Sequence record: NC_055781.1
Direction: 5' to 3' (one strand)
Source: Escherichia phage p000v
DNA length: 64,000 nt
In this document: one piece after another, positions 2,877 to 54,784 of the stretch
Layout: each line of letters starts with the position of its first letter
Numbering within the stretch: position 1 is the stretch's first letter
Position numbers and translations under genes: made by a program
Notes under the pieces: generated by a model
Databases searched by the model: none
The model's input: only the letters and a program-made list of their open reading frames with translations
Told to the model about the DNA's origin: nothing

Positions 2877-3165
2877 AATTTATGGCATCCCTGAAGAAGT
2901 TGGACGTTGTCCAGGATGTTATACTGTTACAAAACTTTTAAAGGAGCTCAATGCTCCTTATACATTTTATAAAGTCCTCACTAATAATGGTAAGATTGAA
3001 TATGACCGTCCTTTAATCGTATCTCTTGCTAAACGTGCAGGATTCACTTCACTTAATATTCGTTATCCTGTCATATTTTTAAATGATAAGAAACAAAAGA
3101 ATATTGCAGAGTTTAAAAAGTCCTTGATTTCATTAGGATATGACTCTGATATCATAGAAGATTGA
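2842..3165 (+). CDS. nrdH: glutaredoxin-like protein, start uncertain (GTG at 2842 proposed)
   Basis: IEIYGIPEEVGRCPGCYTVTK thioredoxin-fold CxxC motif; no in-frame ATG nearby, the ORF-track N-terminus 2713.. overlaps the upstream gene; AAGGA 12 nt before GTG. Confidence 0.55.
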   Translation: MEQNSNLKNKIEIYGIPEEVGRCPGCYTVTKLLKELNAPYTFYKVLTNNGKIEYDRPLIVSLAKRAGFTSLNIRYPVIFLNDKKQKNIAEFKKSLISLGYDSDIIED

Positions 3166-3190
3166 CCAGGTGCCGCCTGGTCTTCTTTAT
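3164..3190 (+). terminator. intrinsic terminator (GACCAGG-tgccg-CCTGGTC then T-rich)
   Basis: 7-bp stem hairpin right after the nrdH stop, followed by TTCTTTAT. Confidence 0.5.
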
Positions 3191-3302: not shown

Positions 3303-3330
3303 TAAACCATCTACTATAGAGGAAAATAAA

Positions 3331-3513
3331 ATGACAATTGAAGATAAAGAAATTAAGGTTGACCAGTACTATTCTGTCAACGGTAATGCAGTACAGATAA
3401 CCAGAGTTTCAAGCCTGGATGTTTGGTACCGTTCAATCAAATATCCAGAAATTGGTGAAATGCTTTGTGACCGTGGTATCTTCTGTTCAATTGCAAAGGA
3501 AATTAAGCCATGA
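3331..3513 (+). CDS. hypothetical protein (60 aa)
   Basis: internal ATG of ORF 3211..3513, preceded by GAGGAAAATAAA RBS and an early promoter. Confidence 0.4.
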   Translation: MTIEDKEIKVDQYYSVNGNAVQITRVSSLDVWYRSIKYPEIGEMLCDRGIFCSIAKEIKP

Positions 3514-4201: not shown

Positions 4202-4398
4202 ATCCTGAAAATATTGTGTCATGGCAACTTCGTGAAGAACGTGCCGAATTCTTTGCCAATATGAAACTCAACGGTGTTGAGGATGAAGACTTTTTACGCT
4301 GGTTCTGGATTTACAAATACAAAGAATGCCAACATGCTGTGCTATTGACTTGCGCAATTATGTACGAAGGCTGGAAAGGCGCTAAAAAGTTCGGTTAA
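4198..4398 (+). CDS. hypothetical protein
   Basis: ATG overlapping upstream stop (ATGA); 66 aa. Confidence 0.4.
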   Translation: MNPENIVSWQLREERAEFFANMKLNGVEDEDFLRWFWIYKYKECQHAVLLTCAIMYEGWKGAKKFG

Positions 4399-4453
4399 TA
4401 GTTTATGATGGTAGGAAGAAGTGTTATCTTCCTACCAATTTGAGGAGAATATC

Positions 4454-4693
4454 ATGGAACAAGAATTAGACATTATTACATCGAAAAAACGTCTTGAAGT
4501 TGTAGTGAACGGCTCAACTATTAAGTTTGTATATGACACTTTAACTGATGCTATTACCGTTAGTTGTGGCGGAAAGGCTTTTAGTCTAGATTCTACTGAA
4601 AACAAATACCCGTTCTATAAAGGTATCTTTGATATGGGTGTTGATATCAGTGTTCGTCAAGCAAACTATTTACATTATCTTATCACGAAATAA
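4454..4693 (+). CDS. hypothetical protein
   Basis: ATG with GAGGAGAATATC RBS; 79 aa. Confidence 0.4.
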   Translation: MEQELDIITSKKRLEVVVNGSTIKFVYDTLTDAITVSCGGKAFSLDSTENKYPFYKGIFDMGVDISVRQANYLHYLITK

Positions 4694-20977: not shown

Positions 20978-21694
20978 ATGGGAAAACATAACACAATGAA
21001 ATATATCAAAGCCGCAGATTTTCAAACCGCATTTAAAGCAGTCAATCGTGAAATTTTAGAAAACCCGGAATTCGTAACTGATTCTCGTATTGGACGTTGT
21101 AATGAAATTGGGTCTATGACAGTAGTTGTTGACACTCCATCATCATTCAAAATGACCGACCCACGTATTAACCGCATCTCTTATGAATATGCCGAAGACT
21201 TCTGGAAGTTTATGATTTCTGGTGGTACCAACGCAGAAGAAGCGTTTAAGGCATATCCTAATGTCGCTAAATTTATTTCTAAACCAAAATCAGATGTTTT
21301 GCCGGCGAACTTCAACACTTTCTATGGTCCTCGCATTGCGGCCCAATTACCAACTCTTCTAAAAGAACTTAAAGAGAAGCCTAACTCCCGAAGAGTTGTG
21401 TTCCAAATTCTAGAAAGTTCTGATCAGGCTTTGCTTGATTCGGACGAAACACTTGAATATCCATGTACTGACTCAGTAACTTATTATATTCGTGATGGTA
21501 AGCTTTATACCCACTGTCATATGCGTTCTCAGAACTGTGCTGTTGTTATGCAGTTGGATTTTTATCTCCAAGGAAAATTACTTCATTATATCGCTAACGA
21601 ATGCGGTGTAGAAGTTGGTGATTATACTCATACCATGGTAAGTGCCCATGTGTTTGAACGTGATTTTGATTATGTTAAAGGATTCCTTGACTAA
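20978..21694 (+). CDS. 42: dCMP hydroxymethylase gp42 (thymidylate-synthase fold)
   Basis: 238 aa, close to T4 gp42 length; assigned by position after gene 43 and size; no catalytic motif checked by eye. Confidence 0.85.
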   Translation: MGKHNTMKYIKAADFQTAFKAVNREILENPEFVTDSRIGRCNEIGSMTVVVDTPSSFKMTDPRINRISYEYAEDFWKFMISGGTNAEEAFKAYPNVAKFISKPKSDVLPANFNTFYGPRIAAQLPTLLKELKEKPNSRRVVFQILESSDQALLDSDETLEYPCTDSVTYYIRDGKLYTHCHMRSQNCAVVMQLDFYLQGKLLHYIANECGVEVGDYTHTMVSAHVFERDFDYVKGFLD

Positions 21695-50501: not shown

Positions 50502-51827
50502 ATGCAATTGAATTCTCGTAATCTAAAAAGTATTATTGATAACGAAGCCTTAGCATATGCGATGTACACCGTTGAAAACCGTGCAATCCCAAACATGATT
50601 GATGGATTTAAGCCGGTTCAACGTTTTGTGGTTCATCGTGCATTAGATTTGGCTCGTGGTAATAAAGAAAAATTTCATAAACTTGCGTCAATTGCAGGCG
50701 GTGTCGCAGATTTAGGTTATCACCATGGTGAATCTTCTGCACAAGATGCAGGTGCATTAATGGCTAACACATGGAACAACAACTATCCACTGTTAGATGG
50801 TCAAGGCAACTTTGGTTCTCGAACAGTCCAAAAAGCTGCAGCATCTCGTTATATTTTTGCTCGTGTAAGTAAAAATTTCTATAACGTATATAAAGATACT
50901 GAATATGCTCCAGCTCATGAAGATAAAGAACACGTTCCACCAAAATTCTATCTTCCTATTATTCCGACAGTTCTTTTGAATGGCGTCTCTGGTATTGCAA
51001 CCGGTTACGCAACAAATATTCTGCCTCATAGTTTTAAATCGGTAAAAAAGGCTGTATTACAAGCTCTTCAAGGTAAAAATGTCACTAAGCCAAAAGTTGA
51101 ATTCCCGGAATTCCGTGGTGAAGTGCATGAAGTTGATGGGCGTTATGAGATTCACGGAACATATAAGTTCACATCTCGTACTCAAATGCAGATAACTGAA
51201 ATCCCATATAAATTCGACCGTGAAACGTATGTGAGTAAGGTTCTCGACCCGTTGGAAGACAAAGGTCTAATCTCATGGGAAGATGATTGTGGTGAACACG
51301 GCTTTGGGTTTAAGGTGAAGTTCCGTAAAGAGTACTCGCTTCCTGATGATGAAGAGCTACGTCATGAAAAAATCATGAAAGATTTTAGTCTCATCGAACG
51401 TCGTTCACAAAACATCACAGTGATTAATGAAAAGGGTAAATTAGCTGTCTATGATAACGTAGTGGACTTAATCAAAGATTTTGTTGAAGTCCGTAAGACT
51501 TACGTTCAGAAACGTATTGACAACAAAATCCTTGAATCTGAAAAAGCATTTAAACTGGCTTTTGCTAAGGCACACTTCATCAAAAAAGTTATCAACGGTG
51601 AAATTGTGATTCAGGGCAAGACTCGTAAAGCTTTGACTGAAGAGCTAGCACAAATCGAAATGTATAAAGAACATGTCGATAAACTGGTAGGTCTTAACAT
51701 CTTCCATATCACTTCCGATGAAGCACGTAAACTAGCAGAAGAAGCTAAAGCTAAGAAAGAAGAAAATGAGTATTGGAAGTCTACTGATGTTGTGACAGAG
51801 TACACTAAAGACTTGGAGGCACTTTGA
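50502..51827 (+). CDS. 52: DNA topoisomerase II medium subunit gp52 (GyrA-like)
   Basis: 441 aa; N-terminus with PNMIDGFKPVQR motif typical of type IIA topoisomerase A subunits. Confidence 0.9.
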   Translation: MQLNSRNLKSIIDNEALAYAMYTVENRAIPNMIDGFKPVQRFVVHRALDLARGNKEKFHKLASIAGGVADLGYHHGESSAQDAGALMANTWNNNYPLLDGQGNFGSRTVQKAAASRYIFARVSKNFYNVYKDTEYAPAHEDKEHVPPKFYLPIIPTVLLNGVSGIATGYATNILPHSFKSVKKAVLQALQGKNVTKPKVEFPEFRGEVHEVDGRYEIHGTYKFTSRTQMQITEIPYKFDRETYVSKVLDPLEDKGLISWEDDCGEHGFGFKVKFRKEYSLPDDEELRHEKIMKDFSLIERRSQNITVINEKGKLAVYDNVVDLIKDFVEVRKTYVQKRIDNKILESEKAFKLAFAKAHFIKKVINGEIVIQGKTRKALTEELAQIEMYKEHVDKLVGLNIFHITSDEARKLAEEAKAKKEENEYWKSTDVVTEYTKDLEAL

Positions 51828-51944: not shown

Positions 51945-51973
51945 GTTTACACGTGCTTCAAACATGATATTAT
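51945..51973 (+). promoter_or_regulatory. early promoter (GTTTAC -17- TATTAT) upstream of motA
   Basis: consensus-like elements 45 nt before the motA ATG. Confidence 0.5.
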
Positions 51974-52017: not shown

Positions 52018-52650
52018 ATGTCTAAAGTTACTTACATCATCAAAGCTTCTGAAAACGCTCTGAATGAAAAAACTGCTGCAATAATGGTTTATATCATTAA
52101 GAACAACTTCACCACTGCTGCCAATGTCCGTGAAGCTCTGGAAGCAGAATACAATGCATCAGTTGTTAACTCTAACATCGGTGTATTGATTAAGAAAGGT
52201 TTAGTCGAAAAATCAGGTGATGGACTTGTAGCAACAGGCGAAGCAATGGATATTATCCAAAAAGCCGCAGATCTATTTGCTCAAGAAAATGCTCCAGAAC
52301 TTCTTCAGAAACGTAACACTAGAAAAGCACGTGGAGTTACTCCTGAAATGCATGAATTAGCAAACTTTGTTTTTGAAAATATTAAAGATAAAGTTGAAGT
52401 TAAAGAAATTGGTGAAAACCGTAGTAACTTAGAAGTTCGATTTGCAAAACGAGTTCTAGGTATTCGTCAGATCGAAATTCGTCGAGATGGCGCTCTTAGA
52501 ATCTTTGCATACAACATGTCAGAAACTGAATCAAAGCTGTTTACTTCTCTTGAAAATGATGTTAAGATTAAGATCGGTGGTAAATATACTTACATTGACT
52601 TCCCTAATGTGTCCAAAGAAATCATTACCCTTGTAACTAACGTACTGTGA
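52018..52650 (+). CDS. motA: middle-transcription activator MotA
   Basis: 210 aa (T4 MotA is 211); N-terminus MSKVTYIIKAS and SNIGVLIKKGLVEKSGDGL match T4 MotA as recalled. Confidence 0.8.
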   Translation: MSKVTYIIKASENALNEKTAAIMVYIIKNNFTTAANVREALEAEYNASVVNSNIGVLIKKGLVEKSGDGLVATGEAMDIIQKAADLFAQENAPELLQKRNTRKARGVTPEMHELANFVFENIKDKVEVKEIGENRSNLEVRFAKRVLGIRQIEIRRDGALRIFAYNMSETESKLFTSLENDVKIKIGGKYTYIDFPNVSKEIITLVTNVL

Positions 52651-52660
52651 GGAATACATA

Positions 52661-52990
52661 ATGAATAAGCTGAATATTATTAACGAACTTCGTAAATGTG
52701 CAGAACCTACTCAGGAAGGATGGGATATTTGGTACCACGGGGCTTATTTAGGGACAATTGTAAAGATTAAAGCAGGTCAATATACGGTTATTCGTGAAAA
52801 TAATGACGCGCCATTTGGCCTTCGTAAAAACTACATGGCAGCGATCAGTTCATTTGTTGATGCAGCTTACGAAATCTATAAAGAAGATTATAAAGAATAT
52901 CAGCAGTCACAACCGGTTATTCGTTCGATTGGTGTAAATAAACAATCACAAAAATCTATTTGGCAACGTATTAAAGGATGGTTTAAATGA
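52661..52990 (+). CDS. hypothetical protein
   Basis: 109-aa ORF. Confidence 0.45.
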
Positions 52991-53448
52991 AAACTTTTAA
53001 AGAACGTTTAGCTCTGTTAGATAAAGCTTTGTCGCGTGAGACTCCGGAAAGTCTGGCTGCTAAATTAGCTTCTTACGGTGGTGAATATACAGAACAAAAT
53101 GTTTTAGACGAAGTTCCTGAAATCTGTTGGCAGACTCTGTATTGGGATGAAAACCAAAAGTATCAACGACGAATTGTCTGCGCAGCCAACCGTTTTAAAT
53201 TAAAAGATGGACGAACTCTTATTATTCCAGGTGCTCGTCATTATTCTAAAGATATGGCAGAAGTTTTAGATGTAGTTAAACCTCAATTAGTTACTCAACA
53301 AGTTTGTGATGATGACCAAGGGTTTATTGACCAATATAGTAATTATTGGACACGTGAAGAAGCAATGATTATTGCAACTTACGCTGGACAAGTACGTATT
53401 GAACGTGGTGGTAATGAAAAAGAACTTTACTCTGAGGACCTTTACTAA
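52987..53448 (+). CDS. hypothetical protein
   Basis: 153-aa ORF, ATGA overlap. Confidence 0.45.
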
Positions 53449-53729
53449 TGAATCTTAAACAACTCCAGATTGATGCTATTGAAGCCCACATTAATCATAT
53501 CAAACGCCTGAATGCTATGATGGAAGAAAATTATGGTATGTATGCTAATCAGCCTGGTTGGGATGCTTTAGATCATCCTTATTTGGTTAATTTATGTAAA
53601 GGTGATACGTTAGCAATTATTCGTGATGGGTTAAAACCTTTCTTGCGCGACATGTATATTAAAATGAACGAAGAAATTATTAGCTCGTTGCAATATCAAT
53701 TAAGGAAATTAGATGATGAGAATAATTGA
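53448..53729 (+). CDS. hypothetical protein
   Basis: 93-aa ORF, TAATG overlap. Confidence 0.45.
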   Translation: MNLKQLQIDAIEAHINHIKRLNAMMEENYGMYANQPGWDALDHPYLVNLCKGDTLAIIRDGLKPFLRDMYIKMNEEIISSLQYQLRKLDDENN

Positions 53730-53940
53730 TTCTAAAGCAGATTATTTTAATTCTGTTAATGATAAGAATAAAGCTTTAATTCGCCACTTTATTACTGAGA
53801 TGGGTTATACTGACTCTAAAGATTTGAAAGAGCACATTATCGAATGTTCTGTGGCTAAAAAGTTTTCTTTCACAGACAAATGTTTAAATGAGGTTATAAA
53901 TCATTATGAACAATCTTGTAGCAAAACACGATTTCAATAA
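53713..53940 (+). CDS. hypothetical protein
   Basis: 75-aa ORF overlapping upstream 3' end. Confidence 0.35.
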   Translation: MMRIIDSKADYFNSVNDKNKALIRHFITEMGYTDSKDLKEHIIECSVAKKFSFTDKCLNEVINHYEQSCSKTRFQ

Positions 53941-54014
53941 GGCTTCCGTCCATAAGGACAAGAAGAAATCAGAACTTCAATCTAAACGCAAACAAAAACA
54001 TAAGGGTAAAGACT

Positions 54015-54302
54015 ATGCTTACTAAAATCAAAGAAAATCCTGCCACTGAACTTGTTATTCGTTGTGAAGAACTTGCAGAGCTTTATCAGGTTAACCGAGA
54101 AGTGTGTCGTAGTGTTATCGTAGATATGGCAGACGAAGTATGTTCTCGTATTCCTTTTAGTGTCGATTTCAACCATATGAAGCCTGGTGAAATCACTATC
54201 GTCTTTGGTTCTGACTATACTGAAGAACGGGCTCTTAATGTCCTAGAATATGAAATGTCATTCTTTGACATACAGGATTACATTGATAGTTATAAGGAAT
54301 GA
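54015..54302 (+). CDS. hypothetical acidic protein
   Basis: 95 aa, Asp/Glu-rich; lies in the T4 arn/motA.1 neighbourhood. Confidence 0.4.
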   Translation: MLTKIKENPATELVIRCEELAELYQVNREVCRSVIVDMADEVCSRIPFSVDFNHMKPGEITIVFGSDYTEERALNVLEYEMSFFDIQDYIDSYKE

Positions 54303-54303
54303 T

Positions 54304-54465
54304 ATGAGTCATAATCTTCAGAACGTAGTAGAGGCCGAACGTGAGCGTGAGGCTTTAATCTATAATGAACTATTAGTTCCATTCTTGGCCTTACACTCGT
54401 ATGAACAGGAAGACTACATTGATTACGTTAAAAGCGTAGAAAAAGCCGTTTACAATCAACACTGA
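54304..54465 (+). CDS. hypothetical small protein (53 aa)
   Basis: ATG right after upstream stop; acidic. Confidence 0.3.
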   Translation: MSHNLQNVVEAEREREALIYNELLVPFLALHSYEQEDYIDYVKSVEKAVYNQH

Positions 54466-54511
54466 TAATGGTACTATATCCATATCAACTAAGTGGAATG
54501 AATAAAACGTT

Positions 54512-54784
54512 ATGAATAAAGACATTGAAATCGTACGCGAAATTATTACTATTGCTTCTATTTTGATTAAATTCTCTAGGGAAGATATTGTTGAAGACCG
54601 AGCAAGTTTCATCGGATTCTTGAATGAGATTGGAATTAAAAAAGATGGTCGGCAGCTAAATCAGAATTCGTTCAGAAAACTAATTACAAATTTAACTGCC
54701 GAAGAAAAGAAAACACTGATTAGTGAATTCAATGAAGGTTTTGAAAATATTTATCGTCATTTAGCGATGTATTCTAACAACTAA
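54512..54784 (+). CDS. asiA: anti-sigma70 factor AsiA
   Basis: 90 aa; MNKDIEIVREIITIASILIKFSREDIVE... matches T4 AsiA as recalled. Confidence 0.85.
   Translation: MNKDIEIVREIITIASILIKFSREDIVEDRASFIGFLNEIGIKKDGRQLNQNSFRKLITNLTAEEKKTLISEFNEGFENIYRHLAMYSNN

Follow-up and report, generated by a model that had tools for sequence, protein, structure and literature searches.

Escherichia phage p000v (NC_055781.1) was analysed over a window of 64,000 nucleotides (nt), in which the interval 52661–54465, between motA and asiA, encodes a run of small proteins on the + strand. Among them is an acidic protein of 95 amino acids (aa), encoded at 54015–54302. This protein is a divergent member of the Arn family and the orthologue of T4 Arn, on the basis of its predicted fold, transitive sequence links, and synteny. 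It is therefore probable that the interval is the arn operon of an RB69-type phage and that the 95-aa protein is a highly diverged Arn, most likely an acidic DNA mimic. The phage is a T4-like Mosigvirus of the RB69 type. The 3-kb region containing the cluster shows 96–99% identity to its best Mosigvirus matches, 146 Mosigvirus records cover at least 80% of it, and among the genomes matched are Shigella phages JK36, JK42, and JK45 and Escherichia virus mar005P1.

As an earlier note on this DNA had stated, the 95-aa protein is acidic, with an isoelectric point (pI) of 4.37, a net charge of −11, and 20 Asp and Glu residues vs. 9 Lys and Arg residues. For comparison, T4 Arn has 92 aa, a pI of 4.55, and a net charge of −9. 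Eight acidic positions are common to the two proteins, vs. 3.2 expected (permutation, p 0.004). The gene lies between a 39-aa open reading frame (ORF) of the DUF7230 family and asiA.1/asiA and is the last but one before asiA, which is the position of arn in T4. In the PHROGs database, the protein belongs to phrog_8202 (‘unknown function’).

Structure prediction, a check that the earlier note had put forward, yielded an AlphaFold2 (AF2) monomer model with a predicted local distance difference test (pLDDT) score of 82 and a predicted template modelling (pTM) score of 0.70. By two methods, the best match of the predicted fold is T4 Arn (PDB 3WX4), i.e., the model adopts the Arn fold. At the sequence level, the two families are linked by P0011, a 91-aa metagenomic protein. 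A profile of the family of the 95-aa protein (o5) finds P0011 with an E-value of 5.7e-7 in an exhaustive search of 1.8 billion representatives, and P0011 shares 33% identity with T4 Arn over 90 aa (BLASTP, E 7e-11). Its tblastn matches comprise Tequatrovirus Arn as well as Mosigvirus proteins, and its gene occupies the matching slot, followed by a 42-aa ORF, asiA, and the holin gene. A profile that combines the o5 family and P0011 but excludes T4 Arn has 3wx4_A as its sole match among 177,635 PDB sequences (E 4.3e-6). When P0011 is left out, hhalign aligns the o5 family with T4 Arn in register over 79 columns (E 4.5e-4). In PHROGs, the second match of T4 Arn is phrog_8202 (E 0.005), while phrog_3151 (‘inhibitor of MrcBC restriction’) is the second match of both the Dhakavirus member of the family (3e-5) and P0011 (2e-7). 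In addition, a C-terminal motif, [FY]-[DE]-[IL]-x-D-Y-[IF], is present in all lineages, and its D-Y pair is invariant in a nine-sequence alignment. The suggestion of the earlier note that this protein may be a DNA-mimic anti-restriction candidate is thus supported by the remote homology to T4 Arn and by the common slot.

Some search results were set aside. A PDB profile search with alignment A2 was discarded as circular because A2 contains T4 Arn, and alignment A4 was used instead. A match to the PP7 coat protein (phmmer against PDB: tandem-dimer chain, E 4e-4; single chain, E 0.76) was rejected as chance, since the duplicated chain inflates the E-value and coat proteins are absent from both fold searches. 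The long ankyrin-like or low-complexity repeat proteins P0008–P0010 and P0012, which gave many short-stretch matches in the exhaustive profile search, were disregarded.

The work of Ho et al. 2014, as summarised in PMC12707154 and PMC7064336, describes T4 Arn as an inhibitor of McrBC restriction of non-glucosylated hydroxymethylcytosine (hmC) DNA (T4gt) and as a proposed dimeric DNA mimic that binds McrB and also H-NS. T4 Arn also blocks PUA-Cal-HAD defence; three residues distinguish it from T2 Arn, and one of these changes, N70S, is alone sufficient to abolish the inhibition of PUA-Cal-HAD (bioRxiv 10.64898/2026.01.15.699771). By analogy with T4 Arn, we infer that the 95-aa protein would be a small acidic dimer imitating the charge pattern of DNA, and that soon after infection it would fill the site at which a host defence protein or nucleoid protein binds DNA. 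On the same analogy, the defences blocked by such a mimic are most likely McrBC-type or other DNA-binding ones.

Several observations weigh against this interpretation. BLASTP of the 95-aa protein against T4 Arn gives no alignment even at E 10, and the protein itself has no phrog_3151 match at E 0.01. When aligned, the two proteins are only 16% identical, hhalign assigns a probability of just 33%, and the AF2 structure rests on a shallow alignment of 7 sequences. Moreover, N70S abolishes one activity of T4 Arn, and the residue aligned to this position in the 95-aa protein is T69; conservation of the target across 84% sequence divergence cannot be assumed. As for expression, the promoter scan did not exceed chance (10 sites vs. 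10.8 expected), and neither did the terminator scan; thus, the two promoter-like sites listed in Table 1 are leads only.

The close family of the 95-aa protein is narrow, comprising six clusters at at least 81% identity among 5.8 billion proteins. Proteins of this type are present in 177 phage records, 164 of them with at least 80% identity and by name mostly Mosigvirus. The remaining 13 show about 30–34% identity; of these, IME341 was inspected and is a Dhakavirus. T4-type Arn is found in 485 records only, with at least 88% identity and listed as Tequatrovirus-type coliphages. All family members have 91–104 aa, pI values of 4.05–4.55, and net charges of −9 to −16. RB69ORF259c, which occupies the equivalent position and is listed as hypothetical, is 93.7% identical to the 95-aa protein. 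In p000v, the gene stops at a TGA (54300–54302) four codons before the stop of most Mosigvirus relatives; their proteins end in ...KERYEP or similar, and the short form is also found in P0005 and others.

Since arn has diverged more than any other gene of the operon and its product carries T69 at the specificity position, a changed target is a serious alternative, albeit one that we hold to be somewhat unlikely. In that case, the protein would be an Arn homologue by descent that has lost McrBC inhibition and blocks another DNA-binding defence or a host protein, the candidates being a type IV enzyme recognising arabinosyl-hmC, a GmrSD/BrxU-type nuclease, PUA-Cal-HAD, or H-NS only. The divergence of arn (about 16% identity to T4, vs. 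40–83% in its neighbours) is by far the highest in the cluster, one of only three differences between T4 and T2 Arn switches PUA-Cal-HAD inhibition, and the Arn and o5 families are split by genus (485 vs. 177 records). The sugar chemistry of hmC also differs in an RB69-type phage. The window encodes a homologue of RB69 ORF048c, a member of the RB69 gene set associated with arabinosyl-hmC DNA (PMC6024577, PMC8056088). The DNA of p000v, which this homologue marks as an RB69-type phage, is therefore expected to be hmC-derived and presumably contains arabinosyl-hmC. On the other hand, the acidic character and several acidic positions have been kept, which fits an unchanged general mode of action and perhaps also an unchanged target. 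Tentatively, the RB69-type Arn could be a specificity-switched DNA mimic that diverged under pressure from hosts attacking arabinosyl-hmC DNA while its neighbours stayed 74–83% identical; the new target may be, e.g., a type IV/GmrSD-like nuclease or a PUA-Cal-HAD-type system. If this is true, the Arn of the window, P0011, and the Dhakavirus branch form a natural series for mapping how the specificity of a DNA mimic evolves.

Replacement of arn by an unrelated acidic protein through cassette exchange, with the likeness to Arn due to convergence on a common small α/β fold, is largely refuted and highly improbable. P0011, as an intermediate, has significant matches to both families in database-scale searches and lies in the same slot, the non-circular profile finds only Arn in PDB (E 4e-6), the PHROG cross-matches are reciprocal, and the C-terminal D-Y motif is common to both. 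Nor does P0011 appear to be a chimera with halves from the two families, as both of its alignments span about 90 residues. A broader proposal, raised in a study of ArcZ in T2 (bioRxiv 10.64898/2026.06.19.733364), treats the entire cluster as a counter-defence island in which every one of arn.1–arn.4, the 39-aa peptide, and asiA.1 would counter a host system of its own. These genes are adjacent to arn and presumably co-expressed with it, and Arn.3 homologues are present in 1593 phage records from many genera. Yet PHROGs, Pfam, and NCBIfam searches linked none of the six to a family with a known function, and the fold search with Arn.3 gave no informative match. Anti-defence genes usually diverge fast; the 74–83% identity of Arn.3, Arn.4, and Arn.1 to their T4 counterparts is the opposite. 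The ‘anti-restriction nuclease’ labels on arn.1–arn.4 appear to be derived from the gene names. Collectively, we consider such an island improbable, and a diverged Arn within a conserved arn operon remains the preferred interpretation.

The earlier note had described six small ORFs between motA and asiA as a cluster expanded relative to T4, to which it attributed only two genes, tentatively motA.1 and arn. The ORFs themselves are real: every one has a match to a phage protein family in PHROGs (E 1e-22 to 1e-73), so they are genes rather than chance ORFs. However, the count is seven, since the 39-aa ORF had been missed, and the last gene most likely starts at 54304. The ORFs fill the interval from motA to asiA on one strand, overlapping or nearly abutting, in the order motA, arn.4, arn.3, arn.2, arn.1, 39-aa DUF7230 ORF, arn, asiA.1, asiA. 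The RefSeq annotation of T4 has six genes in this interval (arn.4, arn.3, arn.2, arn.1, arn, and asiA.1), and motA.1 sits on the opposite side of motA. Furthermore, the T4 gap between arn.1 and arn codes for an unannotated 39-aa DUF7230 ORF, MNNLVAKHNFNKASVHKDKKKAFKESNRKQKHKGKVYDY, with 79% identity to that of the window. The T4 gap between motA and arn.4 codes for the N-terminal 41 residues of the longer Arn.4 of the window, with ATA replacing ATG, and the ‘intergenic region’ between arn.2 and arn.1 of T4 corresponds in frame to the N-terminal 29 aa of the longer Arn.1. With the DUF7230 ORF included, seven ORFs in the window are collinear with seven in T4, and there is thus no expansion.

The variable early cassette supposed in the earlier note was not borne out either. 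The gene order is conserved across Tequatrovirus, Mosigvirus, and Dhakavirus, and the region is 96–99% identical within Mosigvirus; it is not a freely variable cassette. Six of the cluster proteins find their T4 partners by direct BLASTP, whereas the 95-aa protein finds none, and the similarity of AsiA.1 to T4 is limited to the N-terminus. Strong divergence between the genera is seen only in the arn slot and, less so, in arn.2 and asiA.1. The sole difference in gene content among the three genera compared is found in Dhakavirus IME341, which has an extra 112-aa ORF between arn.4 and arn.3 (1807–2145 of the locus examined) and lacks arn.1.

Table 1. Features of the p000v window and coding-like stretches of the T4 locus.
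Feature	Coordinates	Strand	Properties and matches
RB69 ORF048c homologue	20978–21691		dCMP (deoxycytidine monophosphate)-hydroxymethylase-like; 98.7% identity
gene 52	50502–51827	+	
Promoter-like site, sigma-70/T4-early type	51946–51973	+	TTTACA, 16-nt spacer, TATTAT, with TG; 10/12 matches
motA	52018–52650	+	Middle-transcription activator, left border of cluster; Pfam MotA_activ 2.4e-39 plus MotCF; 51% identity to T4 MotA
arn.4 homologue	52661–52990	+	109 aa, basic, pI 9.3; phrog_1594 5e-53
arn.3 homologue	52987–53448	+	153 aa; best conserved gene in cluster
arn.2 homologue	53448–53729	+	93 aa; 40% identity to T4 Arn.2, E 6e-20; phrog_1844 9e-42
arn.1 homologue	53713–53940	+	75 aa; overlaps arn.2 end; phrog_4452 4e-40
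DUF7230 ORF	53906–54025	+	39 aa, very basic, pI 10.1; Pfam DUF7230 5e-13; phrog_1359 4e-22
Arn-family gene	54015–54302	+	95 aa; putative DNA-mimic anti-defence protein; arn slot
asiA.1-like ORF	54304–54465	+	53 aa, acidic; phrog_5245 1e-30
Promoter-like site	54449–54477	+	TTTACA, 17-nt spacer, TACTAT, with TG; consensus match only
asiA	54512–54784	+	Anti-sigma-70 factor, right border of cluster; Pfam AsiA 2.4e-32; 73% identity to T4 AsiA
T4 coding-like ‘intergenic’ stretches	locus 3092–3174, 3307–3376, 4335–4467 of NC_000866 158500–166000	-	

Beyond asiA lie the holin gene t and the genes for gp38 and gp37, all on the − strand. Within the cluster, BLASTP identities to the T4 proteins are 76% over the 67 C-terminal residues for Arn.4, 83% for Arn.3, and 74% over 42 aa for Arn.1. 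In Pfam and NCBIfam, matches for the cluster proteins at E-values up to 10 are limited to DUF7230, MotA, and AsiA. The 39-aa DUF7230 ORF, of which the window holds no second motif copy, is annotated as RB32ORF249c in a relative. The first 22–29 residues of its peptide, MNNLVAKHDFNKASVHKDKKK, match the N-termini of proteins of different lengths in phrog_5724, 4586, 15229, and 31895, and these sequence matches suggest that the N-terminus may be a module common to several PHROG families. The last gene most likely starts at the ATG at 54304 and not at 54250: in the 71-aa reading of this ORF, the phrog_5245 profile aligns to residues 19–71 only, relatives annotate the gene as 162 nt, and an AAGGA lies 8 nt upstream of that ATG. 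T4 AsiA.1 matches phrog_5245 at 2.6e-4 over residues 1–28, and the N-terminal MSHNL is common to both proteins.

The cluster is presumably co-transcribed soon after infection from a promoter upstream of motA and translationally coupled, since its ORFs share one strand and start before, or just after, the stop codon of the preceding gene. The 10-nt gap between the motA stop and the arn.4 start leaves no room for a promoter, and the site at 51946–51973 is the only good promoter candidate for motA and the downstream cluster. The second promoter-like site overlaps the final ~17 nt of the asiA.1-like ORF and extends into the 46-nt gap in front of asiA. A search for MotA boxes inside the cluster (TGCTTnA followed by a −10 element at 11–13 nt) gave no convincing middle promoter.

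In T2, the arn transcript is stabilised against RNase E by the host small RNA ArcZ, which pairs at the 3′ end of arn.2, before a 70-nt spacer carrying the RNase E site (bioRxiv 10.64898/2026.06.19.733364). This reported spacer is one of the three coding-like T4 stretches given in Table 1. Judging from the p000v sequence, the ArcZ/RNase E control element is probably not conserved in Mosigvirus. The ArcZ-pairing sequence CCAGGGAAAT, found at +285 to +294 of T4/T2 arn.2, is absent from the 3′ end of arn.2 in the window (53690–53729). The predicted ArcZ duplex has an energy of −16.7 kcal/mol, vs. −27.6 kcal/mol for T4, and the window value is no lower than the mean for shuffled sequence. With the ArcZ sequence taken for this prediction, the published T4 site is reproduced. 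The GCAUU RNase E motif is likewise absent (53772–53805); in its place, the window reads GCCACUUU (GCCACTTT). Because arn.2 overlaps arn.1, the window has no 70-nt intergenic region.

In a published survey of genes associated with modified bases, RB69 and its group have no entry for Arn (PMC8056088 Suppl. Table 3). Most Mosigvirus records label the gene of the 95-aa protein ‘hypothetical’, and in at least one GenBank record, vB_Eco_F31, the orthologue already carries the name ‘anti-restriction nuclease’. PHROGs (phrog_4452) and many GenBank records apply the same label to homologues of arn.1–arn.4; there, it appears to stem from the gene names by annotation creep. Naming the true Arn orthologue corrects both the blank entry and the spread of the label to arn.1–arn.4. 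This result adds a divergent member to a known family, within an operon that is itself known and conserved; it is a modest gain in annotation and not a new kind of system. However, a homologue that shares fold and charge at 16% identity is a useful probe of DNA-mimic targeting because Arn acts on several defences and a single residue can set its specificity. Moreover, RB69-type phages are phage-therapy candidates, so their anti-defence repertoire is of practical interest.

Among known systems, T7 Ocr and Tn916 ArdA are likewise small and very acidic; these DNA-mimic anti-restriction proteins of mobile elements are expressed early and act by competing with DNA for defence enzymes (PMC12707154). 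They are not homologous to the 95-aa protein, have other folds and other targets (type I restriction–modification, BREX, and RNA polymerase), and are not among its fold-search matches. The arn operon of T2 and T4 carries the same set of genes, likewise collinear and on one strand from motA to asiA, but the cluster of p000v differs in lacking the intergenic region between arn.2 and arn.1 and the ArcZ site. Within the RB69ORF259c group, the 95-aa protein is an ordinary member, although its copy is four codons shorter (95 vs. 99 aa). Its closest known counterpart is T4 Arn, from which it differs in its low identity (~16%), its separate family (phrog_8202 vs. phrog_3151), and T69 at the N70 position, and with which it shares the slot, the length (95 vs. 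92 aa), the acidity, the predicted fold, and the C-terminal D-Y.

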